Positions 1 to 16,686 of a DNA stretch of 18,653 bases are shown here, in pieces. The position numbers were made by a program, and so were the translations under genes. The notes under the pieces are model-generated. The model worked only from the letters and a program-made list of their open reading frames with translations. It was not told the origin of the DNA and did no database searches. The stretch comes from Candidatus Iainarchaeum sp. (GTDB lineage Archaea; Iainarchaeota; Iainarchaeia; Iainarchaeales; JAFCCJ01), in contig JBDRHK010000097.1 of the NCBI GenBank assembly GCA_043816965.1, forward strand, positions 1 through 18,653, read 5' to 3'. Each line of letters starts with the position of its first letter. Position 1 is the first letter of the stretch.

Positions 1-2600
1 CCGCTTACATAATCATTTGTTGCCCCTTGTAAAGCCTGACCAAACTTTCCTGAAGTATAAGCCATTGCATCTGCCAATGTTCCGTTATTGCCATTTCCGC
101 TGAGGTCTGTTGCAGTTGTTCCTGTCCCTTCATCAAGACCCCACCATAACATAAGAGATCCATCCCTCAAAAGGGCAAGGTTAACATCGGCGATTTTCGT
201 TTCATTGGCAATTCCTGAAGTTGTGGAATAATAAACTGAAATATTCAAATCATCATTTTGGGCATCGCTTACATTAAAATCAAACACAACATTTCCATCT
301 GTGTTGTAGTTGTAGGTTTCATAACCATTTGGGGAAATTACATTTACATCAGGAGCTGCATTAAGTGCGACCGTGAAATCTAATGAAGTTGTGGTTGAGG
401 TGTTTTCCCCATAATCCTGGCAGGCGTAATAGTAAGTGTAGCTGTCTCCTGCTAAACTACCGAATTCACAGTTGTACTGTATTCCGGATTTGGTGCAGCT
501 GTTGGAGAGTGAGGCATATGCGGCATTGGAGCTGTCCCATTTGCAGTTTACCCCTGCAATATTGAAATCTGAAATGCTCAAAAGGAGGTTGGTGTCACTG
601 TTTATAACAGGATTAACATAGGGGGCTTCTGCGTCCCCTGCAAGTGACACAACTGTTACTACTGGTGCTGTGTTGTCTATTTGGAACAGATTGTCAGAGG
701 AATCATATTTGTTTGCGTCCAATGTGTCCGCAATATTAACATCTACATAATAGTTCCCGTCTGCAATTCCCCCAACATCCCAACTGTAGAAGCATCTTGT
801 TGAATCTGAAAAGTTCATGTCCTGGCAGCTGGTTTGGAACAGGGCCTGGATTTCTGCAGCAGAGAAACCGCGGTTGAAAATTGCCACATCGTCTAATTTT
901 CCTGCAACATATGAGCCACGATTGACAGCACCTGGCTCATTGAATCCCTTTCCAATTGTAAGCCCCCAATCAGGGAAATCCCCAAGCCATTTGGTGTCTG
1001 TATTGGTGGTATTACAGTCCCTTCCATCATAATATGTTTTTATTCCACTTCCGTCCTGAGTTACTGCATAATGGTGCCAGGCAGTAGTGCCTGGGTTTAT
1101 GCTACAACTACCCGGGGAATATTTGACGCCATCAATATAGAAATATACTGCAAATGTAGTGACAGATGCCATTGCAATAAACGAATTAGCACCATTCACT
1201 TTGTGCATTACGGCATCATTTCTCATGTCATCTGCCCTTTTCAGCCAGAAACTGATGGTTCCTGTAGAAGTATCAAAATCAGAGGATGAGGCAACATTCA
1301 CATAATCATTATTGCCATTAAAGGAAATTCCTTGTTCATATTTTCCATCAGATACCCATCCGCTGTTGGAATCGCAGTCAAGTGTTGTGCAGTCGAAATT
1401 GGTTAATGTCCCATTGTTGCCACTACCACTTGAATCCACAGCTGTTGTCCCTGCACCGTCATCCATCCTCCACCATCCTACCAATCCGAAGTAAGCGCTT
1501 GCATTGACAAGATTAACATCAGATGCAATCAAATTCTCGAATTCTCCAGCCCCTGATGAGTAGTAAATATCGGCTGTTAAAACATCCCCGTCGGCATCCA
1601 TTACATTGAAATCTATAGTATAGTTGCCGTCCTTTGCATAGGAAATTGTTTCCCCGCCATTGGGGAGGTTTAGGTTCATGTCAGGTGGTTGTGGCCCTAA
1701 TTTTTCATAGGTCGATGCAGACAAGTTTGTTTCTACAGTATCCTTATTTCCAACTGAGTCTTTGCATGCAACATAATAGCTTACTGATGTGCCAGCTGTT
1801 TGGGTAATGCTGGAACAGGTTATGCTTGTCCCCCCATCCCCTGTGCAATCCCACCCTCCTGAATCTGCAGTATCATAATCGCTGTCGGCATCATCAATTT
1901 TACAGTCCCCATTTTCATTCAGGGTAAAAGTGTAGAAAGGGTCTACATATCCTGATGTCGGGCAGCTTGAGCAGCTGGCGGTAGGAATTGTGACATCATC
2001 CACGGTGTAGGACGCGGAAACAACGACCCTTGATGTGGTGTTAGTGCAAACCGCGCTGTTGTTGGACCATGTTGTGCCATCCCAAAGGTTGCACCTTACA
2101 TATTCTGTTCCGTCTGTTGAGCCGACAGGATAGGTGCAGGTATAGGCGGCATAAACATAACTGCATGCAGTTCCTGAAGATTCCTGGTGGCTTGTGTCGC
2201 CCCCTGTGCAGATTGTTTCTGCAGCTGTTGGCGTGCAGGTATTTGCATTATCCTTGCAGCAGTAGAAGTAAAGGGTGTCCCCTTCCTTGTCAGTCTGCCC
2301 TGCAGAGGTAACGGTTTGGGTATTGCCTGTATCAATGGGATTTACTGAAGCTGAAATTGAATCAAGCTTTGGGTTGTAACCTGCGAAATAAATTATCTCC
2401 TTCGCTGTTTCCTCATCAAGCTTTGAATTAATGTCAGGGAAATGAATTCTATCAGGGCCCTTTTTGCTGCCCTCCAAAATCTCTTCCCAATTGCCTGAAT
2501 AACCGAACAAATCAAAGGCCCCAACAAAGGAAAGAAGAAGGATTAGGCATGCAAAAACAATCAGTATGGTGGTAACTTTAGCTTTGTCATCAAGAACCAT
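1..2600 (-). CDS. Large secreted or membrane-anchored surface protein with LamG/concanavalin A-like domains, Ig-like modules and Cys-rich segments (3' end beyond the window; at least 866 aa)
   Basis: Translated by hand; absent from the ORF track because there is no stop in the window. ATG at 2600 (MVLDDKAKVTTILIVFACLILLLSFVGAF = hydrophobic signal/TM), open to position 3. LamG motifs GLVGWWRMDDGAGTTAVDSSGSGNNGTL ... ISFNGNNDYV ... TISFWLK ... WHHYAVT ... GKLDDVAIFNRGFSAAEIQAL at about 838-1490. A second LamG starts LMLWWGLDEGTGTTATDLSGNGNNGTL at about 155. About 13 N-x-S/T sequons by hand count. Confidence 0.93.
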   Translation of the reverse strand, partial: MVLDDKAKVTTILIVFACLILLLSFVGAFDLFGYSGNWEEILEGSKKGPDRIHFPDINSKLDEETAKEIIYFAGYNPKLDSISASVNPIDTGNTQTVTSAGQTDKEGDTLYFYCCKDNANTCTPTAAETICTGGDTSHQESSGTACSYVYAAYTCTYPVGSTDGTEYVRCNLWDGTTWSNNSAVCTNTTSRVVVSASYTVDDVTIPTASCSSCPTSGYVDPFYTFTLNENGDCKIDDADSDYDTADSGGWDCTGDGGTSITCSSITQTAGTSVSYYVACKDSVGNKDTVETNLSASTYEKLGPQPPDMNLNLPNGGETISYAKDGNYTIDFNVMDADGDVLTADIYYSSGAGEFENLIASDVNLVNASAYFGLVGWWRMDDGAGTTAVDSSGSGNNGTLTNFDCTTLDCDSNSGWVSDGKYEQGISFNGNNDYVNVASSSDFDTSTGTISFWLKRADDMRNDAVMHKVNGANSFIAMASVTTFAVYFYIDGVKYSPGSCSINPGTTAWHHYAVTQDGSGIKTYYDGRDCNTTNTDTKWLGDFPDWGLTIGKGFNEPGAVNRGSYVAGKLDDVAIFNRGFSAAEIQALFQTSCQDMNFSDSTRCFYSWDVGGIADGNYYVDVNIADTLDANKYDSSDNLFQIDNTAPVVTVVSLAGDAEAPYVNPVINSDTNLLLSISDFNIAGVNCKWDSSNAAYASLSNSCTKSGIQYNCEFGSLAGDSYTYYYACQDYGENTSTTTSLDFTVALNAAPDVNVISPNGYETYNYNTDGNVVFDFNVSDAQNDDLNISVYYSTTSGIANETKIADVNLALLRDGSLMLWWGLDEGTGTTATDLSGNGNNGTLADAMAYTSGKFGQALQGATNDYVS

Positions 2601-2730
2601 GTTCACAACCCAACCGATGGATTCCCAGCAGATTTGCCTGTATTAAAGAACAATATACATATTATTAAATCTTACTTTTATTAATGAAAAAAATAATAGG
2701 GGGTCAGGGACCGCTTTGGGAGAAAAAATC
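2601..2730 (-). promoter_or_regulatory. AT-rich intergenic region: T-tracts after the GT-C stop (possible archaeal terminator) and TATA-like boxes for the LamG gene
   Basis: Minus strand reads GATTTTTTCT...TATTATTTTTTTCA downstream of the stop at 2731. TTTAATA occurs twice (2663-2669, 2641-2647). GGTTGTGA lies just before ATG 2600. Confidence 0.4.
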
Positions 2731-4401
2731 TCATCCGCATCCGGAAATTATCGGGCTCGCAAGCTCATCAGGTCCGCAATCAAGGTTCACTTCATAGATT
2801 TTGGTTGATTCTACTGAGAATCTTTCCTGCAGGAAACTGCAGTTGAGTTCAGGCAAATCCATTGTTCCTGACACCAGCTCAATAGATTTTGGCTTTACAA
2901 TAAAATCCGCCTGATAGTATTTTGTGAGGATTTTCTCCTGTGTTTGGCAGTCTGAAAGGAAATAATTTATGTTGTTAAGGACATGTTCCGGCCTGCATCC
3001 TACTTTAGTTTCGTTTGTGCATACCACTTTCCTCCCAGTAAGGACATTTATGGGCTTTGAAAGATAGGGTGTTGAGAGTATGAGGGTGTTTTCTGGAGTG
3101 TTTTCATTAATCCAGTCGATTACAGGGAGCTGCTCAGGCTCAATATTACGGTAAAAGTGGTCTCCTGCGGCGAAGGGGAAATATGAAAGGGAAATAAGGA
3201 TTATTGCAACTGCCACAATTGGGACAATCTTTCCCGGAAACTTTTTGGCAAAATATTTGTAAATAATCCAAAAGGTGATTCCAGAGAGCAGTGAGGTCAG
3301 ATAGAAAAGGAAAAGCAATCCCCTTCTCAGCAGAAAAGGCAGATTTATTTCGGAAAGGGAAAAAATCAGCAATGAAGCAATTAGAAGAAGGAAACTTATT
3401 GGCAAAATCAGAAGATGGTTTGGGTTTTTTTTGCTGAATTTTTGTTTTTTCAGGGTTATGTATATGGCAGCTATTAGGGCTGCAAGGAAGAGTACTGCAA
3501 TTGGCAGGGTTATGTAGTCTTGTGGAATGGCACCGTTTGCCAGATTATATAAAGGGCTTATGTTAAAGAAATTCAGATTTTGGATTAATCCATCCAGAAT
3601 TGCGATTAAGGCAACAGGGCCATGTTCCTGGAGAAGGGCCAGCAAACTTGTGCTGGAGAAGCTGGCAATCAAAGCAAATATTTCCAGTAATACAACTATG
3701 GCGAATACCGCCATACCGGCAAAAATTTCCTTCCATTTTTCAAATAAAATTTTTGGGTTTAAAATGAGGAAAATAGAGGATGCAAATAACACAATTGTTG
3801 TTGTTATCGGATAGAAAAAACTGCTGAATATTAAGAAGGCAAAAAATAACAGGAAGTATTTTTTGCTTGAAATTGCCTTCAGCAGGAGGTAAAACAGAAA
3901 AGGCAGCAGAGCAAGACCAAGGCTTGATGCAACCACTAATTGATATCCCAAAATAGTTGGATTGGCGGTTGTGAAAAGCACAAAAACAGAGGAAATTATT
4001 GCGGCAAGCCTGTTTTTGAAAAGCTGTTCTACCAGGAGGAAAGTGGAAATCAGCAGTAGGAAGCTCATTAGTATTGGAAATAAAATTATGGTTTCCGTAG
4101 TTCCGAAGTTTGCAAGCATTATGGGAATTGAGAGGAAAACTTCGTAGGCAAGCACCATTGTCAGTACCGGAGGTTCGTCAATGTTGTTGTAGATTGATTT
4201 TTCAGGGCCAGGGGCATAGGGGTCATATGTTGTAACCATCCCTTTGGAAACAGTTTCATTTGCAAGGGCAAGGTTGTCATATTCGTCAGCGTGGAGGGGG
4301 AGGGGATAATTCAGGTGATTGGGCAGGGTTACAGAGACTGAAAGCAGAAGGAAAAGGGAAATTATAAACATCTTGTTATCCAAAAGTTTCTCGATTTGCA
4401 T
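2731..4401 (-). CDS. Multi-pass membrane protein, GT-C fold glycosyltransferase-like (lipid-linked sugar donor)
   Basis: 556 aa, many hydrophobic helices, acidic DE motif in the first loop (PLHADEYDNLALAN), C-terminal soluble domain DWINENTPENTLILST resembling the STT3/ArnT-type external domain but without WWDxG. Purine-rich RBS (GGGGATGGGG). Confidence 0.7.
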   Translation of the reverse strand: MQIEKLLDNKMFIISLFLLLSVSVTLPNHLNYPLPLHADEYDNLALANETVSKGMVTTYDPYAPGPEKSIYNNIDEPPVLTMVLAYEVFLSIPIMLANFGTTETIILFPILMSFLLLISTFLLVEQLFKNRLAAIISSVFVLFTTANPTILGYQLVVASSLGLALLPFLFYLLLKAISSKKYFLLFFAFLIFSSFFYPITTTIVLFASSIFLILNPKILFEKWKEIFAGMAVFAIVVLLEIFALIASFSSTSLLALLQEHGPVALIAILDGLIQNLNFFNISPLYNLANGAIPQDYITLPIAVLFLAALIAAIYITLKKQKFSKKNPNHLLILPISFLLLIASLLIFSLSEINLPFLLRRGLLFLFYLTSLLSGITFWIIYKYFAKKFPGKIVPIVAVAIILISLSYFPFAAGDHFYRNIEPEQLPVIDWINENTPENTLILSTPYLSKPINVLTGRKVVCTNETKVGCRPEHVLNNINYFLSDCQTQEKILTKYYQADFIVKPKSIELVSGTMDLPELNCSFLQERFSVESTKIYEVNLDCGPDELASPIISGCG

Positions 4402-4506
4402 AGCCCCATCCCCTGCCAGTAAAGAAGTGAATAAAAAAGTCTTTAAGCAGTTCTTTTGGGAAGGGACTTAAATAAAGATAAAAAGAAGTCGCATTATTTT
4501 TCTACT

Positions 4507-5496
4507 ATGAAGTCAGCAGGCATAGCTGCAACAGGCATATATGTGCCGGAAAAGGTTGTGACAAATAAGGATATTGAAAAGTTAATGGACACAAGTGATG
4601 AGTGGATTTGGGAGCATATAGGGATTAGGGAAAGGAGGTTTGCAAGGCCTGACCAGCCAACTTCTGACCTGGCCATAAGGGCGGGTGAACTTGCATTAAA
4701 GAATGCGGGAATAGGCGCAGATGAACTGGACATGATTTTTGTGGCTACCTGCAGCCCTGATATGTTCAGCCCTTCAACAGCCTGCATAGTGCAGGATAAG
4801 ATTGGTGCCGGGAATGCTGGCGCGGTTGATGTTAACAATGCCTGTACTGGCTTTGTTTACGGGCTTGAAATTGCATCCAAATTCATTGCTGATTCCAGCT
4901 CTAAGAATGTTCTGCTTATAGGTGCGGAAAAGCTTTCAGTTGCATTAAGCGTTAAGGACCGTTCAACATATGTCTTTTTTGCAGATGGTGCAGGGGCGGC
5001 AGTATTAAAAGAGGCAGAAAAGGGAACAGGCGTTATTGGCAGCTATCTCAGGGCAGATGGAAGCGGGGCAATGTATTTGGGAATCCCTGCAGGAGGGACT
5101 GCAATGCCCTCCACCCATGAAACACTGGATTCAGGAATGCATACAGTTAAAATGAACGGCGGGAAGATATGGGGCTTTGCGGTTAAGGCTTTTCCTGATG
5201 CCGTGCGAAAGGCACTGGAAAGGACAGGTTATTCTGTTGAGGATGTGGACATGATTATTCCCCATCAGGCCAATTACAACATTATAGTGGAGGGGATGAA
5301 AAAGCTTGGCCTGCCTATGGAAAAGACCCACACAAACATGGATAAATATGGGAATACTGTTTCGGCATCAATTCCTATAGCACTGCATGAAGCTGCTGAA
5401 CTTGGAAAGATAAAAAAAGGGGACTTGGTTGTGCTGGCTGGTTTTGGTGGGGGGCTTAGCTGGGGGGCCAATGTTATAAGGTGGGGTTGCAAATGA
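4507..5496 (+). CDS. fabH: 3-oxoacyl synthase III (FabH/KAS III family), copy 1
   Basis: DTSDEWI...GIRERR, catalytic Cys (NNACTGF), His (PHQAN), Asn (YGNTVSAS), GFGGGLSWG. Start moved from track TTG 4456 to ATG 4507 (MKSAGIAATGIYVP) to match the FabH N-terminus. Confidence 0.93.
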   Translation: MKSAGIAATGIYVPEKVVTNKDIEKLMDTSDEWIWEHIGIRERRFARPDQPTSDLAIRAGELALKNAGIGADELDMIFVATCSPDMFSPSTACIVQDKIGAGNAGAVDVNNACTGFVYGLEIASKFIADSSSKNVLLIGAEKLSVALSVKDRSTYVFFADGAGAAVLKEAEKGTGVIGSYLRADGSGAMYLGIPAGGTAMPSTHETLDSGMHTVKMNGGKIWGFAVKAFPDAVRKALERTGYSVEDVDMIIPHQANYNIIVEGMKKLGLPMEKTHTNMDKYGNTVSASIPIALHEAAELGKIKKGDLVVLAGFGGGLSWGANVIRWGCK

Positions 5497-6248
5497 TCTG
5501 GCCTGAGTTTGCGGGAAAGACAGCAATTGTTACAGGTGCGTCTGCCGGGATTGGGAGGGCAATTGCACTTTTACTGGGAAAAAACAGGGCAAATGTAATT
5601 GTGAACTATAATCAGAATAAGGAAAGGGCAGAAGAGGCAGTTAAGGAAATTGTTTCATTTGGAGGGAAGGCAATCGCGGTTAAGGCAGATGTTACAAAGG
5701 GGGGAGAGGTTGAAGAAATGGTAAAAAGGGGGTTGGATGAGTTTGGGGCAATTGATTTTTTAGTGAACAATGCAGGCATTACAGGGGATGCCACATTTAT
5801 TAAGATGGGAAAGGAACAGTGGCAAGAGGTTATTGATGTTAATTTGAACGGGACATTCAATTGCTGCAAGGCAGTTGTCCCAAAAATGGTTGAAAATGGC
5901 AAAGGAGGGGTGGTGAACATAGCTTCAATAAGTGCAGAAATTGGAAACTTTGGTCAGGCGAATTATAGCGCTGCAAAAGAAGGCGTTATTGGATTCTCCA
6001 GAACACTTGCACGGGAGCTGGCTGTTAAGGGCGTGAGGGTCAATGTGGTTTCCCCTGGATTTATTGACACCAAAATGAGCGAAAGCATACCGGATAAGAT
6101 AAGGGAGATGCTGATTATGCTGACTCCCTTGGGGAGAAAGGGCCGTCCTGAAGAGGTTGCAGAGGCAGTGCTTTTCATGCTTTCAGAAAGGGCAAGCTAT
6201 ATAACTGGGCAGGTGCTGGATGTAAACGGCGGATTCTATATGAGGTAA
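5493..6248 (+). CDS. fabG: 3-oxoacyl reductase, SDR family (FabG/PhaB-like)
   Basis: TGASAGIG, NNAG, catalytic S and YSAAK, PGFIDT, GQVLDVNGG. ATG 5493 overlaps the fabH stop (ATGA), indicating translational coupling. Confidence 0.92.
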   Translation: MIWPEFAGKTAIVTGASAGIGRAIALLLGKNRANVIVNYNQNKERAEEAVKEIVSFGGKAIAVKADVTKGGEVEEMVKRGLDEFGAIDFLVNNAGITGDATFIKMGKEQWQEVIDVNLNGTFNCCKAVVPKMVENGKGGVVNIASISAEIGNFGQANYSAAKEGVIGFSRTLARELAVKGVRVNVVSPGFIDTKMSESIPDKIREMLIMLTPLGRKGRPEEVAEAVLFMLSERASYITGQVLDVNGGFYMR

Positions 6249-6253
6249 TCTTG

Positions 6254-6859
6254 ATGAAAGTTCTGGGAATAAATGGAAGTCCAAAAAGCAAAGGCAATAG
6301 TGCTTTCTTATTGAATGAATGCTTGGAATCAGCCAAGAAAGAAGGGGCTGAAACTGAGATTATACATCTTGCAGATTACCGTATAAAAAAGTGTAATGGA
6401 TGTGACAGGTGCATTAAAGAAAAGAAGTGCAACCTTGATGATGATTACAAAATTATTGAAGAAAAAATGATTGAAGCTGATGCACTTGTGCTTGCTTCCC
6501 CGGTTTATGTCGGAAGCGTGAGCGGGCTTATGAAAGATTTTGGCGACAGGGCCAGGCCATTGCGCATGGATTCATTCAGGCTGAAGGATAAATTTGCGGC
6601 ATTTATTTCCGTGGCCGGTTTGAGGCATGGTGGGCAGGAACATGCATTCATATGGTTTATAGATTTCAGCCTCTACTCTGGCTTGATTCTCATCGGGAAT
6701 GCTGCAGATCCAGTAAGCCAAGGATATTTTCCCGCAGCCTCACTGCAAAGGGATGATGGCAACTTTAGTTTTGTAAAAAGAGACAGCCTGGCAATTGAGG
6801 AATCTGTGCAGTTGGGAAAGCGGATTGTAGAAATTCTGAAAAAGTTTAGATGTAAGTAA
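6254..6859 (+). CDS. Iron-sulfur flavoprotein (Isf-like; flavodoxin/NADPH-dependent FMN reductase fold)
   Basis: MKVLGINGSPKSKGNS FMN-binding loop, CNGCDRCIKEKKC = Cx2Cx2Cx5C Isf-type cluster motif, ASPVY, GGQE. ATG at 6254, GAGGT upstream. Confidence 0.88.
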   Translation: MKVLGINGSPKSKGNSAFLLNECLESAKKEGAETEIIHLADYRIKKCNGCDRCIKEKKCNLDDDYKIIEEKMIEADALVLASPVYVGSVSGLMKDFGDRARPLRMDSFRLKDKFAAFISVAGLRHGGQEHAFIWFIDFSLYSGLILIGNAADPVSQGYFPAASLQRDDGNFSFVKRDSLAIEESVQLGKRIVEILKKFRCK

Positions 6860-6980
6860 ATGAATGTTTTAGGCATTAATAGCGGTCTTGGGGGTGGAAG
6901 CAATACCTGGTTTTTTCTTGATGAATACATAAAGGCAGTTAGGGCGAATGTAGTACATTGCTTTTGGAAAAATAAAATTA
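6860..6980 (+). pseudogene. 5' remnant of a second flavodoxin/Isf paralog
   Basis: MNVLGINSGLGGGSNTWFFLDEYIKAV...HCFWKNKIKK aligns with MKVLGINGSPKSKGNSAFLLNECLESA...HLADYRIKK of the preceding gene. Similarity ends where the convergent MaoC stop lies (6978-6980), before the Cys motif. Confidence 0.65.
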
Positions 6981-7412
6981 AAAAGGCGCTTTCGCAGAAG
7001 CCCTGCCTTTTACTAACAATTCCCCCTTATGGTTTGTTATTGTGGTTTCAACATCCACATGCTTTTTCTCATAATTTTTGTTTGATATTTTTGCCTTAAC
7101 AGTTAATGTATCGCCAATCCTTGCCGGCCTTAGGAATTTTAAGTCTTGACTACGGTATATGTACCCATTTCCAGGCAACTTTGTTCCTAGCAGAGCAGAA
7201 ATCATTGCGCCCAGAAGCATCCCCTGGGCAACCTTCCCCTTGAAGATTGATTTCCTCGCAATCTCATCATCAAGATGTATTGGGTTGGTGTCCTGGCTCA
7301 CCTTTGCAAACTCTTCCAAATCCTTTTCCTCAACTGTCCTTTTCAGCGAGGCTGTTTCCCCAATCTGCAAATCTGCAAACGGCCTTATCTTGTATTTTGA
7401 TTCAGGAACCAT
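6978..7412 (-). CDS. MaoC-family (R)-specific enoyl-CoA hydratase/3-hydroxyacyl dehydratase (PhaJ-like), copy 1
   Basis: Hot-dog fold motif FAKVSQDTNPIHLD (catalytic D...H), GMLLGAMISALLGTKLPG, SQDLKFLRP..IGDTLT. Confidence 0.9.
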   Translation of the reverse strand: MVPESKYKIRPFADLQIGETASLKRTVEEKDLEEFAKVSQDTNPIHLDDEIARKSIFKGKVAQGMLLGAMISALLGTKLPGNGYIYRSQDLKFLRPARIGDTLTVKAKISNKNYEKKHVDVETTITNHKGELLVKGRASAKAPF

Positions 7413-7469: not shown

Positions 7470-7877
7470 CTAATCCATTAATTTTATTTCAGAACTTTCT
7501 TCCAACACAGCATCTCCGCTTTTTGTTTCGGCTTTTGAACTGCACGAAAGGGAGTTGTTCCTGCCCTGCCTGCACTCTAGTTTGAAAACTATTTTTTCAC
7601 CCAAAAAAACAGGTTTAATGAATTTTACATCGTGCCTAATCAGCTTGAAACTTCTTTTTAGATTCCTGCTGTAACGTGAATGTATATGGGCCACCAAAAG
7701 CACGCCGAAAACAGCCCTCCTCCCAAAAGCGGTTTTGCCTGCAAAATCCCTGTCTGCGTGAATTGGGTTAACATCACCGACCAAATTATTGAAAGCTTCA
7801 ACTTCTTTTGCTGTGAACTCCTGCATAAGTGAGTCTACTTTCCCTACCCTGAGCTCATCAAAGTTTTTTGTTTTCAC
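7470..7877 (-). CDS. MaoC-family dehydratase, copy 2 (divergent)
   Basis: FNNLVGDVNPIHAD..FA..T.FG, KFIKPVFLGE. GTG start. Confidence 0.82.
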   Translation of the reverse strand: MKTKNFDELRVGKVDSLMQEFTAKEVEAFNNLVGDVNPIHADRDFAGKTAFGRRAVFGVLLVAHIHSRYSRNLKRSFKLIRHDVKFIKPVFLGEKIVFKLECRQGRNNSLSCSSKAETKSGDAVLEESSEIKLMD

Positions 7878-7914: not shown

Positions 7915-8952
7915 ATGGCCGGGGAAACCAAAATAAGGCAGTACAAGAAAGGGGATGAAGTCAGGATTAAAGAGCTTATTAAAAGCAGCTCAAGGCCGGT
8001 TACAATTCAGGAATGGAACTGGAGGTTTCTGGAGAACCCTTTTGGAGAGCCTATTATTCTTATTGCTGAAAGTCCGGATGGCGAATTGGTCGGGCATATA
8101 GGCGCATTCCCTATGGAATTGAAAATTGGGGAGACTATTGTCAAAGCATATCAGGCAATTGATTTTGTTGTATCGGAGGAATTTCGGGAAAAGGGCATTT
8201 TCACAAGGCTGTTCAGAAAAGGGCTTGAAATAGTCAGAAGAGAAAAGCTGCCCTCTTTTGGTTTTACCAATAGGGAGGCAATGAATGCGATTGGGAAAAA
8301 AACAAATCTCAGAAGTGTTCTTGGCATGCAGCAGTATGTCAAGCTGTTTAACTCTGTGCCTTTGTTAAAGCTGCTGGGAATTGAGCAGACTCCAAAATTC
8401 TTGAAAAAATCATTGGATGCCGTTGTGCAGATATTTTTTGGCGGTAAAGTTTCAACCAAGCCTCAAAAACTCAAATTTGAAAAAATAAAAGTGTTTGGGG
8501 CTGAGTTTGACCGGATTGCAGGGAAGATCGATGCAAATTACAATATGGCGGTTAAGAGAAGTTCGAAATACCTGAACTGGAGATTTGTGGGAAAACCGAA
8601 TAATAATTATGAGCTGTTTGCCATCAAAAAGGACAGGGTTTTGTTAGGATATGTGGTGCTGAAGCTTGGCAAAACCAGCGGGCAAATTGTTGACTTGTTT
8701 TTTAAGGAAGATGAATCTGTTCTTTTGGAAACTTTGGGTTTTTGTGAGGAATTCTTGAGGGGAAAGGGTAAAAGTTCAATTTCATTCGGGATTTATTGCA
8801 AGTGGGTTGAGGAAAGATTATTTGGGGCAAGGTATGTGAAAAATATTTTATCTGTGAAGCCCAGATTCTTTATTGATGATATACGTGCGCAAAGATTGGG
8901 TAAAAAATTAGGCCGGGCTTATTTAACAATAGGTGACACTGATTGGGCGTAG
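7915..8952 (+). CDS. Two-domain GNAT-family N-acyltransferase
   Basis: KIRQYKKGDE, WNWRFLENP, acyl-CoA-binding motif A DFVVSEEFREKGIFTRL, GFTN; second half RSSKYLNWRF..KP. This architecture is typical of GNATs in polysaccharide loci. Confidence 0.82.
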   Translation: MAGETKIRQYKKGDEVRIKELIKSSSRPVTIQEWNWRFLENPFGEPIILIAESPDGELVGHIGAFPMELKIGETIVKAYQAIDFVVSEEFREKGIFTRLFRKGLEIVRREKLPSFGFTNREAMNAIGKKTNLRSVLGMQQYVKLFNSVPLLKLLGIEQTPKFLKKSLDAVVQIFFGGKVSTKPQKLKFEKIKVFGAEFDRIAGKIDANYNMAVKRSSKYLNWRFVGKPNNNYELFAIKKDRVLLGYVVLKLGKTSGQIVDLFFKEDESVLLETLGFCEEFLRGKGKSSISFGIYCKWVEERLFGARYVKNILSVKPRFFIDDIRAQRLGKKLGRAYLTIGDTDWA

Positions 8953-8960
8953 GTGTTTGA

Positions 8961-10178
8961 TTGAGCGAAACAAAAAGGATTGCAAAAAACGGCCTCGTGC
9001 TTTTCATCGCTAACGGCTTTTCAAGGGCAGTTTCCATTGTCCTGGTAATTTACTTCATCCACCTTGTTGGTGCAACAGTCTTTGGGACCTACAGCTTTGC
9101 ACAGGCATTTGTTTCTGTCTTTGTTGCCTTTACCGCTCTTGGCCTGAACAACCTAACCATAAGGGAGGTCGCAAAAGATTACCGCCAGGCGGGAAAATAT
9201 CTGGGGAATTTATTTCCCCTAAAGGCGGCAATATCGACGGTTATTCTGATTTTGATTCTTTATTCTGCATTACTTCTAAAGCTTCCTTTTGAAACAATTG
9301 TTGTTATTATCCTGCTTGCCCTTGCAGGGATTGTCAACGCACTTGCAGACATATTCAGGGCACTTTTCCGGGCCTTTGAGGAATTTGCCATTGAATCAGT
9401 TGCAGGCATCTCCTCAAGCCTGGTTGGTTTTGCGGCCGGAATTATTTTATTATATTATGGGTTTGGGATAACTGGCTTGGTCTTTGCCCTGCTTCTCGCA
9501 TCTGTAACAGATTTTATCCTGCAAATGGCATTTCTCGGAAAGATTAGGGCGGAAATTAAAATTGAATTTGATTTCAGCTTCTGGAAGAGTACCCTGAAAT
9601 CTGCGGTGCCTTTTGGCATGGTTATTTTAATGTTTGCGGTTTATTTTTCGGTTGATGTTTTCATTTTAAAATTTCTGCGTGGGGAAGAGCTCCTTGGATT
9701 CTACACCATAGCATACAACATGGTGCTTGCAATTTCAATTCTTCCTCAGGCTTTTGCAACCTCGACTTTCCCTTTCTTTTCCCGCAATCAGGAAGGGGAT
9801 GCGGAAAAAAACGAAAGAATTCTTTCAAAAAGTTTGCTATTGTCTGTTTTGGCCGGACTTGTGTTCGCCCTGGTTCTTTTTATTTTTGCGCAGGATATTG
9901 TGGTTCTTTTGTTCGGGACTGGATTCGGGGAAACAATATCTGTGCTTCAGATTATCTGCTGGGGCCTTGTCCTGCTTTTCCCGGGAATAATCCTTATAGG
10001 CTATATGAGCGCAACCGGCAGAAATAATGTCCTTGCTATTTTGCTCCTTGCGGTTACGGCGATAAACACTGCCCTTGACTTGTTGCTTATTGGCGATTTT
10101 GGGCTTTTGGGCGTGGCATCGGCAACCGTTTTCAGCCAAATCATTTTATTCATTTTACTATTGTATTTTAAGAGGTGA
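8961..10178 (+). CDS. Wzx/MOP-superfamily oligosaccharide flippase
   Basis: RIAKN, FGTYSFAQAF..F..LGL...IREVA, D.FIL..LRG...LGFY..AY, FPFFSR, NTALDLLLI..FGLLG.A.ATV; highly hydrophobic. TTG start with AGGTG upstream. Confidence 0.9.
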   Translation: MSETKRIAKNGLVLFIANGFSRAVSIVLVIYFIHLVGATVFGTYSFAQAFVSVFVAFTALGLNNLTIREVAKDYRQAGKYLGNLFPLKAAISTVILILILYSALLLKLPFETIVVIILLALAGIVNALADIFRALFRAFEEFAIESVAGISSSLVGFAAGIILLYYGFGITGLVFALLLASVTDFILQMAFLGKIRAEIKIEFDFSFWKSTLKSAVPFGMVILMFAVYFSVDVFILKFLRGEELLGFYTIAYNMVLAISILPQAFATSTFPFFSRNQEGDAEKNERILSKSLLLSVLAGLVFALVLFIFAQDIVVLLFGTGFGETISVLQIICWGLVLLFPGIILIGYMSATGRNNVLAILLLAVTAINTALDLLLIGDFGLLGVASATVFSQIILFILLLYFKR

Positions 10179-10183
10179 ATTGG

Positions 10184-10975
10184 TTGTGTGATTTTTGTGT
10201 TGAGCATGGGGAAGGTAAAAAATGGTACCTTAATGCCCACAATTATAGCAAGGAGCTCGCAAGAAAGAAAAAGCTTGAGAACTATGATTCCCTCCATCTT
10301 TTTATGGACCAAAAGCTGGGGGAAATCGGCCTGAAGTTCATGCTTACAAGGCCCATCTTAAGGCACTATGCAAATGATTTCTACACCAAGCACCATTCAG
10401 GGCAGATAATTCCTCTTGACGATGCATTGGAAATATTGGACATAGCCGGTGACTTTCGGCTGTTTGATTGCCCCTGTGAAAAATTAATTGACGGGGTAAG
10501 CAGCAAAAAATGCCTTATGCTTGGCCCCAAATCCGACAGGATGAATAGCCTTAGCAAAGAGAAGTCAGAGATTCTTGACAGGGAGGATATTGAAAATTAT
10601 CTTAGAGGATTCAATGAGAAGGGATTGGTGCATTCTGTATGGACTTATGGGGTCCCATATATCGGGTGCATCTGCTCCTGTGACAGCGAACGGTGCTTGG
10701 CGGTTATAGGCAGGAATAAGTTTGAAAAATATGGTGTCAATACAACAATCAAAAAATCAGAATACCTTGCGTCGGTCGATGAAAAAAGGTGCATTGGCTG
10801 CGGGTTTTGTGTGGAGAAATGTGCCTTTGGGGCGATAGAAATAAATCAGGGCGGAAAGGCCGAAATCAATATGGAAAAATGTTATGGCTGCCTGAACTGC
10901 GTTTCTGCATGCAACCGAAAGGCAATTTCTCACAAATCAAGGGAAGATGTTCCTGATTTTGAGGGAAAATGGTAA
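10184..10975 (+). CDS. Multi-cluster Fe-S protein with C-terminal 2x[4Fe-4S] ferredoxin domain
   Basis: CIGCGFCVEKC and CYGCLNCVSAC motifs, plus extra Cys groups (N-terminal CDFCVEH, CPC..C, CICSCDSERC). Start moved to TTG 10184, 5 nt after GAGGTGA (10172-10178). Confidence 0.82.
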   Translation: MCDFCVEHGEGKKWYLNAHNYSKELARKKKLENYDSLHLFMDQKLGEIGLKFMLTRPILRHYANDFYTKHHSGQIIPLDDALEILDIAGDFRLFDCPCEKLIDGVSSKKCLMLGPKSDRMNSLSKEKSEILDREDIENYLRGFNEKGLVHSVWTYGVPYIGCICSCDSERCLAVIGRNKFEKYGVNTTIKKSEYLASVDEKRCIGCGFCVEKCAFGAIEINQGGKAEINMEKCYGCLNCVSACNRKAISHKSREDVPDFEGKW

Positions 10976-10977
10976 AA

Positions 10978-12465
10978 TCATATTTTGGCTGAGTTTTTTA
11001 TTTTTCGCATTGCGCTGAAAAAATTAATTTCAAGTCTGGGGCTTATTGAGAAAAGAATTTTCGAGATATGGTAAGTGGAAAGGGAAAGGGAAAACTGCAA
11101 AATTCCTTGGCTGTTTTTTATGTTGTGTGAAACGATAAAATCGACTGTCTTCCCATACTCATTCTTCGCCTCTTCAGGATAGGTAAAAAATATATCGAGA
11201 AGAATCGGGGGATAGTGGTAGAAATTTTTTTGGAAGACAGGGATTTCCTCTGATTCTACAAAATATTTTTTTTCTTCCGAGTTCCACCATCCATCAAATC
11301 TGTTCTTACTCCTGTATTCCTCAAAAAGTTTGGAGCCGGGAAAGGGGGTAAGGACATATGAGGGGGTGAAATTGCTTACATATGGGGAAATCTCACTCAT
11401 AAACTCCCTTGTTTTTTTGATATCCTTGGCATTCTCCCAGGGGAAGCCGAGGATGAAGTTTGCATTTGCAGCAATCCCTGCGTTTTTTGTCAGAATTAGG
11501 GCATCCCTCGTCTGCTGAAGGGAAATCCCTTTCCGGATTTTTTCAAGTGTTTTTGGGTTTCCGCTCTCAAGGCCATAGGTTATTGAACCGCATCCCGCAT
11601 TCTTCATTTTTTTAAGGAGTTCGAAATCAACTTTATCAACCCTTGTTGCGCAGTGCCATTTAATTTTGAGATTTTTATTAAGAATTAATTTGCAAAGTTC
11701 CATCACTCTTTCCCTATTGAAGCTGAATGAGTCATCGGTGAAGTAAAATATTTCAGTGCCATAGCGTTTCCTGTATTCTTCAATCTCTTTCATGACTTTT
11801 CCTGCAGACATGAACCTGAATCTTTTCCCCTGGACTAGGGAGGTTGCGCAGAAAATGCAGTTGTATGGGCAGCCTCTGCTTGAGTTGATTACTGCAAAAT
11901 TGGAACTCGCTCTTTTTGATTTTGCATAATCTTTTTCATTGAAGAGGTCTATTGCAGGAAATGGGAGGCTGTCGAGGTTTTCTATTGGCGGCCTTGCGGA
12001 ATTGCCAATGACTTTTTTCCCTTTCCTGAAGCTGATTCCCAAAATATTTTCCAGTTTTTTTTCGCCTCTTGCGAAATCAATAAGCTCTGCAAATGTCTCT
12101 TCCCCCTCACCCCTTACAACAACATCAAATCCTCTTTCCAGGGATTCCTGGGGAAGGATTGTTGGGTGCGGTCCGCCCGCTATCTTCAGTGCAGGTGAAT
12201 CTGCCAATAAATTAATCATCTTAAGTGCCTGGCTTGCATAGAGGGTGTTTACCGAAACACAGACAATGTCAGGCCTGAATGAGTCCACGGAATTCAATAT
12301 ATCCTTATCAGAGTATTCCGCATATCTTGCTGAGAGGTCGATTGTTTTTATTTCGCAGTTTTTTTCCCTTGCAACTGCGGCAAGATAGGCAAGGCCCAGA
12401 GGAGGGGAAAAATGTCCGGAGTTTTCCTTCGGGTGAATGAAAAAAACTTTTGTTTTGCCTGGCAT
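10978..12465 (-). CDS. Cobalamin-binding radical SAM enzyme (class B methyltransferase-like)
   Basis: N-terminal B12 domain (PPLGLAYLAA, GGPHPT, VVRGEGE), SRGCPYNCIFC CxxxCxxC, GLESG, FILGFPWE, TPFPGS. Start likely ATG 12465 (AGGGA upstream) rather than track 12498. Confidence 0.92.
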   Translation of the reverse strand: MPGKTKVFFIHPKENSGHFSPPLGLAYLAAVAREKNCEIKTIDLSARYAEYSDKDILNSVDSFRPDIVCVSVNTLYASQALKMINLLADSPALKIAGGPHPTILPQESLERGFDVVVRGEGEETFAELIDFARGEKKLENILGISFRKGKKVIGNSARPPIENLDSLPFPAIDLFNEKDYAKSKRASSNFAVINSSRGCPYNCIFCATSLVQGKRFRFMSAGKVMKEIEEYRKRYGTEIFYFTDDSFSFNRERVMELCKLILNKNLKIKWHCATRVDKVDFELLKKMKNAGCGSITYGLESGNPKTLEKIRKGISLQQTRDALILTKNAGIAANANFILGFPWENAKDIKKTREFMSEISPYVSNFTPSYVLTPFPGSKLFEEYRSKNRFDGWWNSEEKKYFVESEEIPVFQKNFYHYPPILLDIFFTYPEEAKNEYGKTVDFIVSHNIKNSQGILQFSLSLSTYHISKILFSISPRLEINFFSAMRKIKNSAKI

Positions 12466-12473
12466 AAAAATCC

Positions 12474-13592
12474 CTATGGTTTGAATTTCCTTACGCAATC
12501 CATTACTCGTCCCATATCCCCATCAGTTAAGTCAGGAAAGAGCGGGAGAGTAAGCAGTCTTTTCCACACGCTGCCGGCAACCGGTGTTGAGCCTGCAATG
12601 CCCATTTTTTTGTAGAGAGAATGCAGGTAAATCGGTTTGTAATGCACAGAGCTTGAAATGCCGTTTTCAGCGAGATGTGCAATCAATCTGTCACGGGTTT
12701 TTTCATCATTCATTTTAATGACATAATTGTGGTTCGAACTTTTAACATAACTTCTTTTAGCAGGAATCTCAAGCCAGTTCAATTTGGAGAAGGAATCATT
12801 GTACTGTTTGGTTATTTCCCTGCGTTTTTTGTTGGCAACATCCAGCTTTTTCAGCTGAATCAGACCTATTGCCGCAGCCAAATCATTCATATGGTATTTG
12901 AATCCCAACTCAGTAACATCATAATGCCATTTGTAATTTTGATTGTCCCTGGAGAAGGTATCCTTGTCAATTCCAAGCCAGCTTAGCAATTGCAGCCTTT
13001 CTGCAATCTCCTTGTTGTTTGTGGTTATCATGCCCCCATCACCTGTTGATAGGTTTTTAACCCCGTGGAAACTGAAACATCCGATTTCGCCCAAATTTCC
13101 CGCCATCATTCCCCTGTATTCTGCACCACATGCATGGGCGGCATCTTCTATAACAAATAATTCATTCTCCTTTGCGATTTCATTCAATTCATCCATCTCA
13201 CAGGGGTGGCCGCCATAATGCACAGGAATAATTGCCTTTGTTTTTTCCGACATTTTTTTTCTTATATCATCAGGGCTGATGTTCAAAGTATCTGGTTGAA
13301 TATCGGCAAAAACCGGGGTTGAATTATTGTAAAGAATTGAGTGGATTGTTGAAACAAATGTAAGGGGCGTGGAAATTACCTCGCCCTTATCAACATCCAG
13401 TACTTTCAATGCGAGATGCAATGCCGCGGTTCCTGAATTGGTTGCAACAGCATATTTTGTTCCGATAAATTCCGCAAATTTATTCTCAAATTCCTTAACC
13501 CTTGGGCCACAAATAACATAACCGCTCTCAATTACTTTTCTCACGGCATTAGCCTCTTCTTCCCCCATGGATGGCCTGAAAACAGGAATCAT
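12474..13592 (-). CDS. DegT/DnrJ/EryC1/StrS-family PLP-dependent sugar aminotransferase
   Basis: NSGTAALHLAL, TFVST, PVHYGG, IEDAAHA, PLP-lysine motif SFHGVKNLSTGDGG, LGFKYHM, LTLPLFP. Confidence 0.94.
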   Translation of the reverse strand: MIPVFRPSMGEEEANAVRKVIESGYVICGPRVKEFENKFAEFIGTKYAVATNSGTAALHLALKVLDVDKGEVISTPLTFVSTIHSILYNNSTPVFADIQPDTLNISPDDIRKKMSEKTKAIIPVHYGGHPCEMDELNEIAKENELFVIEDAAHACGAEYRGMMAGNLGEIGCFSFHGVKNLSTGDGGMITTNNKEIAERLQLLSWLGIDKDTFSRDNQNYKWHYDVTELGFKYHMNDLAAAIGLIQLKKLDVANKKRREITKQYNDSFSKLNWLEIPAKRSYVKSSNHNYVIKMNDEKTRDRLIAHLAENGISSSVHYKPIYLHSLYKKMGIAGSTPVAGSVWKRLLTLPLFPDLTDGDMGRVMDCVRKFKP

Positions 13593-13596
13593 ACAA

Positions 13597-14535
13597 TCAC
13601 TTCAATAAAAATTGATTTGAAATTATTTTAAGCAGTTCAGTGTCACTAATCTTCCTACTTTCCTGTATTATTTCCCTTTTTTTGAGGATTTTCGGCAAAT
13701 CCTTCATTGCATCAAATTTGGCCTTTGCCACGCTGAAATTTCCCTTAAGTGTGTTTAATGCAAGAATGCCAAATTGGAGGGGAACAATCCAAACCAAATT
13801 TCTCAGGAGAATTCCGCGCGGGAAATTTTTTGTAATAAACCAGATTATGTTTCTTTCAACCAGGTATTTTTTGAAATTGTCCTTTTTGTTGACTGTTACA
13901 GAGCCCTTGTGGAAAACGACTGCCTCTTTTGCGAGGGATACATTCCAGCCCCTGAGCAATGCCCTTATGCTTATGTCTGCATCCTCAAAATAAATGAAGA
14001 AATCATTGTCATAAATCCCCTCTTTTTGCCTTATATCCTCAAGCATTTCCCTGCGATAGAGACATGCACAGTCATCAACGCCGAACAGTTTTCCATCGCC
14101 CTTAAGCTCGAGTGGGTAGCCGGATTTAATGAGTTTCAGGCCGATTGTGTCTATTTCGTTTGAGCCTGTGCGCAGGATTTTGCTTCCCACCAGCCCAATT
14201 TTTTTATTCTTTTCAACTTTTTTCACTAATTCTTCCAGCCAATTTCTGTCTGCAACAGCATCATTGTTCAACATTGCTACATAACTTCCCATGCTTTTTT
14301 CAATCCCAATATTGTTTGCAGCAGCAAATCCCTCATTAGTTTTATTTCTTATTATTTTAACTCCTGGAAATTTATTTTTCACAAGTGCAATTGAATTATC
14401 TTTTGAGGCATTATCTACAAGAATAATTTCTGTTTTTTTGTGGGTCTGGTTGGAAAGGGAGGAAAGGCATTCCTCCAAAAGGTTTTCCCCGTTGTAATTC
14501 ACAACAATCACTGAAATTAATTTTTCTCTTTTCAT
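13597..14535 (-). CDS. Family 2 glycosyltransferase (WbbL/rhamnosyltransferase-like subgroup)
   Basis: ISVIVVNYNG, LVDNASKD, NEGFAAANNIG, LNNDA, FFIYFEDADIS.R, VFH. Start likely ATG 14535. Confidence 0.92.
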   Translation of the reverse strand: MKREKLISVIVVNYNGENLLEECLSSLSNQTHKKTEIILVDNASKDNSIALVKNKFPGVKIIRNKTNEGFAAANNIGIEKSMGSYVAMLNNDAVADRNWLEELVKKVEKNKKIGLVGSKILRTGSNEIDTIGLKLIKSGYPLELKGDGKLFGVDDCACLYRREMLEDIRQKEGIYDNDFFIYFEDADISIRALLRGWNVSLAKEAVVFHKGSVTVNKKDNFKKYLVERNIIWFITKNFPRGILLRNLVWIVPLQFGILALNTLKGNFSVAKAKFDAMKDLPKILKKREIIQESRKISDTELLKIISNQFLLK

Positions 14536-14540
14536 ACAAA

Positions 14541-15738: not shown

Positions 15739-16686
15739 ATGAAAGCTGAAATAAGGGCTATAGGGACATATGCGCCAGAAAGGGTGCTTTTGAATGAGGA
15801 ACTTATCGGGATTAAGGGAATAAACACTTCAGATGAGTTCATAAGGGAGAAGTTTGGGGTCAGGGAGAGAAGGGTTGCGGAGAATGAGAATACCTCTGAT
15901 TTGGGTGTGAAATCTGTTGAAATTGCGCTTAAAAAAGCAAATATGAAAAAAGAGGATTTGGATGCAATAGTTGTTGCAACAATGACTCCGGATTTACAGT
16001 GCCCTTCCACTGCTTGCATAATTCAGGAAAAACTCGGGCTAAAGGGGATTCCCGCCTTTGACCTCAGTGCCTTTTGCTCAGGATATGTATATGGTTTGGA
16101 TACAGTAGCAAGGATGTTAGATAACAGGATGAAAGGGGATTCCTACAAAAATATTGCATTTGTGACAGCTGAAAAAATGTCTGGGATTTTGGATTATTCT
16201 GACAGAACTGTTTCCCCCATTTTTGGGGATATTGGCTGCACCACAATTGTGTCAAAGAGTGAAAAGGATAAGGTGATTTCCTCCTACCTTTACGCAGACG
16301 GTTCTGGGAAAGATGCGCTAATTATTCCTGAGGGGGGGAGATATTTGAAAATGGAGGGCAAGGATGTTTATGATTTTGCAACCGAGCTTTTCCCAAAACT
16401 TGTTAAGGAAACTTTAAGAAAGGCAGAAATGCACCTGGATGATGTGGACTGGATATTTCCGCATCAGGCAAATGTGAACATAATCAAAAAAGGTTTGGAG
16501 GCCCTGGGTCTGGGGATGGAGAAAACTTTCTTGAACATGGATAAGTATGGGAATACTGCTGCTGCATCAATTCCGCTTGCAATTGGTGAGGGGATTGAAA
16601 AGGGAAAGGTAAAACGCGGGGACATCCTGCTTTGCGTCGGTTTTGGTGCAGGCTGGACTGGTGGGGGAATTGTTTTAGAATTCTGA
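15739..16686 (+). CDS. fabH: 3-oxoacyl synthase III (FabH/KAS III family), copy 2
   Basis: NTSDEFI...GVRERR, catalytic Cys (SAFCSGY), His (PHQAN), Asn (YGNTAAAS), FGD, GFGAGWT. Confidence 0.9.
   Translation: MKAEIRAIGTYAPERVLLNEELIGIKGINTSDEFIREKFGVRERRVAENENTSDLGVKSVEIALKKANMKKEDLDAIVVATMTPDLQCPSTACIIQEKLGLKGIPAFDLSAFCSGYVYGLDTVARMLDNRMKGDSYKNIAFVTAEKMSGILDYSDRTVSPIFGDIGCTTIVSKSEKDKVISSYLYADGSGKDALIIPEGGRYLKMEGKDVYDFATELFPKLVKETLRKAEMHLDDVDWIFPHQANVNIIKKGLEALGLGMEKTFLNMDKYGNTAAASIPLAIGEGIEKGKVKRGDILLCVGFGAGWTGGGIVLEF

Follow-up and report, generated by a model that had tools for sequence, protein, structure and literature searches.

The window analysed here is the whole of contig JBDRHK010000097.1 (C97; 18,653 nucleotides) in assembly GCA_043816965.1 of Candidatus Iainarchaeum sp., a DPANN (Iainarchaeota) archaeon, and it carries two genes for homologues of 3-oxoacyl-acyl carrier protein synthase III (KAS III, FabH), designated KAS1 and KAS2. 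As described in textbooks, bacterial fatty acid synthesis is started by FabH in dependence on acyl carrier protein (ACP); for archaea, the accepted view is that thiolases assemble acyl chains on coenzyme A (CoA). KAS1 belongs to the FabH family by sequence and by fold, yet no ACP partner, which the function of the family requires, was found for it. We favor, with moderate confidence, the view that KAS1 functions as a decarboxylating condensing enzyme of the FabH type and of bacterial origin, which operates free of ACP in a CoA-based module for the acylation of an amino sugar. KAS1 probably uses CoA thioesters rather than ACP, because no ACP system was found in the genome, the KAS III genes with Asn at the position of Escherichia coli FabH R249 (Asn249) have CoA-type neighbors, and positions 214 and 253 are mostly acidic in the KAS1 clade. 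We infer the role of CoA as the carrier of both substrates, the identity of the product and the link to the sugar. The initial annotation of the window had already proposed the use of CoA thioesters from the docking residues of KAS1. This conclusion is retained on the basis of the genomes in which ACP was not found and of the CoA-type neighbors, but the residue argument proved insufficient.

Sequence and predicted structure of KAS1 and KAS2

Translation of KAS1 from the ATG at 4507 is likelier than that from the TTG at 4456, and the database protein has 329 amino acids. Both KAS III domains are present, as judged from the Pfam scores (PF08545, 85.9 bits; PF08541, 125 bits), and the TIGR00747 score of 352.1 bits was above the curated cut-off of 292.1. 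An AlphaFold2 model built on 24 sequences of the subfamily reached a pLDDT of 96.6. The best Foldseek match of this model was FabHA from Bacillus subtilis (8vd9; TM 0.92/0.97, root-mean-square deviation 1.4, 45% identity), and E. coli FabH was also among the best matches, with 38% identity. As modeled, KAS1 is structurally a FabH with the thiolase-type fold. The comparison with the orthologue in the related genome G152 gave a dN/dS of about 0.07, which points to selection, at a saturated dS of 2.4.

KAS1 and KAS2 were aligned using MAFFT with FabH from E. coli K-12 (NC_000913; L009:2260-3213), and the residue numbers used here are those of the E. coli protein. The catalytic triad of KAS1 is intact, with Cys (4843-4845), His (5263-5265) and Asn (5353-5355) corresponding to C112, H244 and N274, respectively. 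The codons from 5263 to 5292 (cat cag gcc aat tac aac att ata gtg gag) are translated into HQANYNIIVE, in which Asn (5278-5280) stands at the position of R249 and Glu (5290-5292) at that of A253. This decapeptide, both replacements, the intact triad and a PAGGTA flap, which lies at 5086-5103, had all been described in the initial annotation, and the translation and the alignment bore them out. In addition, Gly (5173-5175) was found at the position of K214 and His (4615-4617) at that of R36. The CoA-contact residues W32 and R151 are retained. The 2001 work of Zhang and co-workers is said to place K214, R249, K256 and K257 in ACP docking, and reportedly describes an effect of A253 substitutions.

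The triad is also intact in KAS2, in which the corresponding decapeptide reads HQANVNIIKK. Asn249 is therefore not peculiar to the first copy. KAS2 further has Asp at the position of K214, Phe at W32, Glu-Ala at K256/K257 and a Lys at position 210, so that the basic docking residues K214 and R249 are absent from both copies (Gly/Asn in KAS1, Asp/Asn in KAS2). KAS2 is 89% identical to its orthologue in G152, with a dN/dS of about 0.07 and a dS of 0.87. Directly downstream of the KAS2 orthologues in the genomes G076 and G077, a thiolase of 387 amino acids is encoded (L176:1164-2327). One in-frame TAG or TGA was flagged in each of three KAS III matches (G165:C7:52645-53625 and 63746-64672; G076:C82:2543-3469). 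These stops probably sit at the ends of the matches, and the calls of the same genes as open reading frames (ORFs) are open.

ACP machinery in the genome and in the phylum

In the genome of the organism (1.34 Mb, 109 contigs, 86% complete), no match was obtained for PF00550 PP-binding (ACP), PF01648 ACPS or PF00698 FabD. FabF/B was not found either, and the matches to ketoacyl-synt were all below the cut-off. The same searches were positive in the expected control genomes, and the ACP search was positive in 11 of the 14 controls. When the survey was extended across the phylum (215 genomes), KAS III was detected in eight genomes (4 of 79 genera) and PP-binding in four, with zero overlap between the two sets. 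The eight genomes without PF00550 are all incomplete metagenome-assembled genomes (MAGs; 63–92% complete); a joint miss of ACP in all eight by incompleteness is unlikely, although no single absence is proof. Within the window itself, neither an ACP-like frame of 45 or more amino acids nor, in any ORF, a Pfam match to PP-binding was found.

The surroundings of KAS III genes were scanned with a profile made from AcpP-like ORFs. An ACP-like ORF was located within 8 kb of KAS III at 65 of 232 loci with Arg249, but at 0 of 31 loci with Asn249; the latter represent about five lineages and several of them are short, so that 0/31 overstates their independence and is not statistical proof. No such ORF was detected at one locus with both the Arg and the Asn types, and one was detected at 1 of 3 Lys loci. 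These results support that Asn249 marks a KAS III subfamily located beside CoA-type enzymes, without an adjoining ACP.

The possibility that a bacterial contig had been mis-binned was ruled out by the composition of the contig and by its synteny in independent Iainarchaeota MAGs. The GC content was 0.420 as compared with 0.425 for the genome, and the tetranucleotide correlation was 0.979 (0.975 on average for the other contigs). The nearest relative of KAS1, with 75% identity, is encoded on a syntenic contig of a MAG designated 'Candidatus Iainarchaeum archaeon'. GGGP synthase was found in the genome of the organism.

Occurrence of Asn249 in the KAS III family

In a set of 169 loci, mostly from bacterial species representatives, Arg occupied position 249 in 159 of the 163 FabH-type matches, and the others were Asn (3) and Lys (1). 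The three Asn cases were KAS1, KAS2 and one Iainarchaeum orthologue. When the 120 best database homologues were aligned together with KAS1, KAS2 and E. coli FabH, 80 of the 123 rows had Arg and 41 had Asn. Among the 150 nearest cluster representatives at 50% identity, Arg was found in 125, Asn in 17 and other residues in 8, and Asn249 was paired with a non-basic residue at position 214 in 16 of these 17. The Asn249 substitution exceeds chance. Searches with a tight alignment of the Asn249 sequences gave generic patterns and retrieved almost only canonical FabHs; the Asn249 loci were retrieved by single-protein queries.

In the FastTree phylogeny of 177 rows, 119 Arg rows fell within a canonical clade of 122, and the Asn rows were distributed outside this clade over several lineages of poor resolution. 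At least nine changes of the Asn label are needed on starred branches; it is clustered and not confined to one clade. The starred KAS1 clade contains 11 rows of Iainarchaeota-type sequences, eight with Asn and three with Arg. Position 214 is D, E, N or G, and thus non-basic, in every row, and Glu253 is present in nine of the 11 rows (six of the eight distinct sequences).

Gene cluster around KAS1 and a proposed pathway

The genes surrounding KAS1 are listed in Table 1. The FabG-like short-chain dehydrogenase/reductase (SDR) gene overlaps the end of KAS1 and adjoins it in six related genomes, and its product matches both FabG and acetoacetyl-CoA reductase models of NCBIfam. The module as such is kept in six related genomes. 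Four of them, G152, G165, G107 and G110, share the core consisting of KAS1, FabG, a flavoprotein, two MaoC proteins, a GNAT-like protein and glycosyltransferases. The G109 contig, 4.6 kb in length, yielded only KAS1, FabG, the flavoprotein and a single MaoC. The slot of the flavoprotein is filled by an FMN_red-type protein in three genomes and by a non-homologous PNPOx-like protein of 141–144 amino acids in G107, G109 and G110. The flavoprotein is a candidate for an enoyl reductase or an electron carrier. Further CoA enzymes are found next to the relatives: G165 has a crotonase, G076/G077 have the thiolase that follows the KAS2-type gene, and G107/G110 have a 2-oxoacid:ferredoxin oxidoreductase that is IOR-like and consists of two subunits.

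Table 1. Predicted genes of the KAS1 cluster and the proteins that replace its flavoprotein in related genomes
Feature	Position	Strand	Evidence and remarks
KAS1 (KAS III copy 1)	4507..5496	+	329 aa; Pfam ACP_syn_III and ACP_syn_III_C; TIGR00747
FabG-like SDR 3-oxoacyl reductase	5481..6248	+	start at GTG 5481 or ATG 5493; Pfam adh_short_C2, KR
FMN_red-type flavoprotein	6251..6859	+	Pfam FMN_red; Cys-rich motif; directly after FabG
MaoC-like (R)-hydratase/dehydratase 1	6978..7412	-	Pfam MaoC_dehydratas; D-x-N-P-I-H motif
MaoC-like (R)-hydratase/dehydratase 2	7470..7877	-	Pfam MaoC_dehydratas; D-x-N-P-I-H motif
GNAT-type acyltransferase	7915..8952	+	345 aa; Pfam Acetyltransf_9, Acetyltransf_1
Wzx/MurJ-type flippase	8961..10178	+	Pfam Polysacc_synt
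Protein with C-terminal 2x[4Fe-4S] ferredoxin domain	10175..10975	+	Pfam Fer4; weak EFR1-family match below cut-off
B12-binding radical SAM enzyme	10978..12498	-	Pfam B12-binding and Radical_SAM
DegT/PseC-like sugar aminotransferase	12474..13592	-	Pfam DegT_DnrJ_EryC1, 398 bits
GT2 glycosyltransferase	13597-14544	-	Pfam
GT4 glycosyltransferase	14541-15662	-	Pfam
KAS2 (KAS III copy 2)	15739..16686	+	315 aa; Pfam; TIGR00747, 301 bits
GT4 glycosyltransferase	16692-17804	-	Pfam
GT2 glycosyltransferase	17801 to window end (18652)	-	Pfam
PNPOx-like replacements	L188:7972-8400, L189:446-880, L190:9319-9744		same module position as the 6251-6859 flavoprotein

From this gene content, a pathway can be proposed. 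KAS1 would accept an acyl-CoA primer and release a 3-oxoacyl-CoA, which the co-transcribed FabG-like reductase would convert to (R)-3-hydroxyacyl-CoA and the two MaoC dehydratases to enoyl-CoA. The adjacent flavoprotein may reduce the enoyl-CoA, and KAS2 may extend the chain by a second C2 unit. The DegT aminotransferase, whose best NCBIfam model is PseC with a score below its cut-off, would form the amino sugar. The short acyl group would then be put on this sugar by the GNAT protein, which is kept in the module of related genomes and is a candidate N-acyltransferase for the amino sugar; a sequence search of the PDB gave no useful relative of it. Finally, the glycosyltransferases and the flippase of the cluster would build the acylated sugar into a surface glycan.

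Upstream of KAS1, a polytopic membrane protein of 556 amino acids is encoded at 2731-4401 on the minus strand. It had no match in Pfam or NCBIfam, and may be a GT-C-like glycosyltransferase or polymerase. A large surface protein with Laminin_G_3/Ig-like domains (3-2606, minus strand) adjoins it, as it does in G152, G165 and G107. The B12-binding radical SAM enzyme has its place taken in related clusters by radical SAM/SPASM enzymes (L185:4786-5814, L189:2677-3696, L190:11517-12500).

Comparison with known systems

KAS1 shares with bacterial FabH (E. coli FabH and B. subtilis FabHA, 40–45% identity) the fold, the domains, the triad, and W32 and R151. It differs from them at K214, R249, A253 and R36, for which it has Gly, Asn, Glu and His, respectively. 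Furthermore, KAS1 is located in a glycan cluster and not in a fab operon, in a genome in which ACP, AcpS and FabD were not found. Automatic annotation gives such enzymes and true FabHs one label. If the proposed function is correct, the combination of a non-basic residue at 214, Asn249 and often Glu253 would help to tell them apart.

By analogy, the module in the window would work most like the CoA-based fatty acid synthesis of Sulfolobus acidocaldarius, with KAS III replacing the thiolase/DUF35 pair. As described in the available part of the preprint, the Sulfolobus pathway is independent of ACP and was reconstituted from a ketothiolase/DUF35, an SDR ketoacyl-CoA reductase, a MaoC dehydratase and an enoyl-CoA reductase (bioRxiv 10.1101/2024.07.05.601840). 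Both systems are archaeal and place an SDR reductase before an (R)-specific MaoC-type dehydratase, the assignment in the window being by homology only. In Sulfolobus, however, the condensing pair is thiolase/DUF35 and the enoyl-CoA reductase is of the MDR type, whereas the window has a bacterial-type KAS III, and a flavoprotein in the place of the enoyl-CoA reductase, within a glycan cluster.

With regard to the setting, the O-polysaccharide locus of Flavobacterium psychrophilum (wfpC-wfpG with pglE/pglF) is comparable; its predicted product, in the accessible part of the report, is a 4-amino sugar that carries a 3,5-dihydroxyhexanoyl group (PMC6519341). In both clusters, two ketosynthases lie among glycan genes together with a ketoreductase, an aminotransferase for sugars and an N-acyltransferase, the last being a candidate in the window. 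The F. psychrophilum locus encodes an ACP of its own (wfpD), and its acyltransferase is of the PglD type, whereas no ACP was found in the window and the acyltransferase is of the GNAT type; the window adds two dehydratases and the flavoprotein. The enterobacterial O-antigens with 3-hydroxybutanoyl groups were rejected as a model, as their clusters, so far as the sources were available, carry the transferase only (FdhC/QdhC) and no synthesis module.

The chemistry proposed for KAS1 is that of NphT7 from Streptomyces sp. CL190, a KAS III homologue that, according to the part of the article at hand, uses acetyl-CoA together with malonyl-CoA, releasing a CoA product (PMC5509993). The gene for NphT7 is part of a mevalonate cluster, and its host produces malonyl-CoA, whereas no source of malonyl-CoA was found in the organism of the window. 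Should our interpretation hold, this conserved enzyme under selection would show that nature has adapted the KAS III scaffold to carrier-free chemistry beyond NphT7 of Streptomyces, and DPANN archaea would invest in acylated surface glycans.

Alternative functions of KAS1

Several observations weigh against a KAS1 that is free of ACP and consumes malonyl-CoA. The initial annotation had stated that the ACP-docking residues are lost. This holds for R249, K214 and A253, but K256 and K257 are kept in KAS1, and a Lys is present at position 211 (5164-5166). Arg249 is retained in two orthologues from relatives in which ACP was not found, G165 and G110. Nine positions at the tunnel mouth sum to a net charge of +4 for E. 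coli FabH, against +2 for KAS1 and +1 for KAS2, and the mean of this charge is 3.06 for the Arg249 representatives (n = 125) and 2.12 for those with Asn249 (n = 17). With position 249 left out, the means are 2.06 and 2.12, respectively, which is no depletion. A docking patch stripped of positive charge as a whole is unsupported by this crude nine-position count.

KAS III from Acinetobacter baumannii is a further point on this side. In the parts of PMC8036411 that were available, in which R249 is mentioned, this enzyme carries A60 where E. coli KAS III has R36 and N296 where the latter has R249, and it binds malonyl-ACP in nuclear magnetic resonance titrations, so that Asn249 is no bar to ACP binding there. 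The binding relies on basic residues elsewhere, including two at the positions of N210 and E211 in the E. coli enzyme (PMC8036411). KAS1 shares with it Asn at R249 and a residue other than Arg at R36; in contrast to KAS1, the A. baumannii enzyme has two insertions and keeps the K214 equivalent. The initial annotation had held that its conclusion would suffer if R249N were common among proven ACP-dependent FabHs, and A. baumannii KAS III provides a partial instance. Asn249 alone is not diagnostic of ACP loss, because the A. baumannii enzyme with Asn binds ACP and two orthologues without a detected ACP keep Arg. No text on R249 or K214 was found in the 2025 PNAS paper on FabH and BioZ.

These data, together with the TIGR00747 score above the cut-off, the 45% identity to B. 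subtilis FabHA and the 86% completeness of the genome, would fit an ordinary ACP-dependent FabH, the ACP, AcpS and FabD of which are unassembled or too divergent, and in which Asn249 is offset by other basic residues, as in A. baumannii KAS III. A divergent carrier could evade both PF00550 and the AcpP-derived profile, and the genomes are incomplete MAGs. We nevertheless regard this explanation as very unlikely, since ACP was found in none of the eight KAS III genomes against 11 of 14 controls, AcpS, FabD and FabF/B were not found in the genome of the organism, the 31 Asn249 loci have no ACP-like ORF, and the neighboring enzymes are of the CoA type.

The supply of the extender is the main difficulty for the favored ACP-free enzyme. 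A decarboxylating KAS III requires a malonyl thioester. The genome of the organism gave no match to Carboxyl_trans or Biotin_carb_C, and its sole AMP-binding enzyme is an acetate-CoA ligase, with no malonyl-CoA synthetase. In the phylum, carboxyltransferase was detected in one of the 215 genomes and in none of the eight with KAS III, and acetyl-CoA carboxylase was found in none of these eight. These negative results leave the malonyl donor unexplained and are a problem for malonyl-CoA as the extender. This missing source is a concrete gap. One pyruvate-type oxidoreductase is encoded elsewhere in the genome, and a thiolase and an HMG-CoA-synthase-like gene are located on contig C103.

The missing carboxylase would be accounted for if KAS1 used CoA thioesters without a malonyl extender, either in a non-decarboxylating (thiolase- or OleA-like) reaction or with another C2/C3 donor. 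KAS2-type genes lie beside a thiolase in G076/G077, and the Sulfolobus pathway, as far as the preprint was available, runs without malonyl-CoA (bioRxiv 10.1101/2024.07.05.601840). However, the decarboxylating-type Cys-His-Asn triad is intact in KAS1, the nearest relatives are true FabHs, and an extra catalytic base was not identified in the enzyme. The known non-decarboxylating relatives, OleA, thiolase and HMG-CoA synthase, use a different set of residues. We consider a non-malonyl reaction unlikely. A role of KAS1 and/or KAS2 as KAS III-like acyltransferases, which would transfer an acyl group from CoA to a sugar or another acceptor without forming a C–C bond, has a very low probability in our estimation. 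Some KAS III homologues of antibiotic pathways are indeed acyltransferases, and the glycan cluster with its aminotransferase, the presence of the enzyme in two copies and the missing malonyl source would all agree with such a role. The characterized acyltransferase homologues, however, often replace the triad Asn, which is kept in both copies here; moreover, the co-conserved reductase and two dehydratases need a 3-oxoacyl product, and a separate GNAT protein is present.

Finally, the CoA-based module may supply the membrane or protein lipidation with fatty acids, either free or bound to lipid, with its location in a glycan cluster being incidental. Condensation, reduction, dehydration and possibly enoyl reduction are all represented, and CoA-based fatty acid synthesis exists in archaea, as reported in the available part of bioRxiv 10.1101/2024.07.05.601840. 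On the other hand, glycosyltransferases, the aminotransferase, the flippase and GNAT surround the module in several genomes, a bacterial Asn249 KAS III gene stands between a sugar transferase and an N-acyltransferase, and F. psychrophilum has a comparable glycan-linked module, although this one is predicted only (PMC6519341, accessible part). There is accordingly only a small chance that fatty acids for other purposes are the product, and acylation of an amino sugar by the ACP-free module is preferred.

KAS III genes with Asn249 in other lineages

The named Asn249 members come from Bathyarchaeota, Poseidoniales, an organism labeled 'archaeon', a Firmicutes MAG and Wukongibacter. A restriction of Asn249 to archaea was ruled out by the members from the Firmicutes MAG, Wukongibacter and Neomarinimicrobiota. 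The literature search found no paper discussing KAS III in Bathyarchaeota, Poseidoniales or DPANN, most subscription journals being outside its coverage.

On Bathyarchaeota-type metagenome contigs, a family III CoA-transferase gene directly follows the Asn249 KAS III gene (L281:7706-10061, L293:8001-10245). The two form a conserved pair, and other fatty-acid genes are not nearby. Five or six KAS III paralogues, the Asn249 gene among them, are lined up in Wukongibacter, Fusibacter, Thermotalea and a Halanaerobiales MAG, accompanied by SDRs, a 3-hydroxyacyl-CoA dehydrogenase, a hotdog thioesterase and an SCP2-like protein. The rows of the first three also contain an IOR-like oxidoreductase. The IOR-like oxidoreductases and the CoA-transferase that recur beside the relatives of KAS1 are candidate suppliers of malonyl units, and neither is encoded within the window. 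We tentatively suggest, as a possibility of rather low probability, that the KAS III proteins with Asn249 and a non-basic residue at 214 constitute a distinct class, mostly of archaea and some anaerobic bacteria, that builds chains without ACP or acetyl-CoA carboxylase; the extender would come from the IOR-like ferredoxin oxidoreductase (2-oxoacid to malonyl-CoA) or from the family III CoA-transferase, or would not be a malonyl unit.

The clostridial clusters with multiple KAS III genes (L193:290-14172 from Wukongibacter sp. M2B1, and also L197, L198 and L202), in which no ACP was found, further encode two SDRs, a glyoxalase-like protein, an FlK-type thioesterase and a DUF362/ferredoxin protein. 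Several of the paralogues keep the Cys of the triad but have Tyr or Val for His, and His for Asn. We know of no described pathway with this layout.

In Neomarinimicrobiota, a KAS III gene with Asn249 and Asp214 is located between a sugar transferase gene and the genes for a 3-hydroxyacyl-CoA dehydrogenase and a hexapeptide acyltransferase. This glycan cluster (L278:1956-7459), in which the sugar transferase is of the initiating type and an epimerase gene is also present, resembles a compact pathway that would yield a 3-hydroxyacyl sugar amide.

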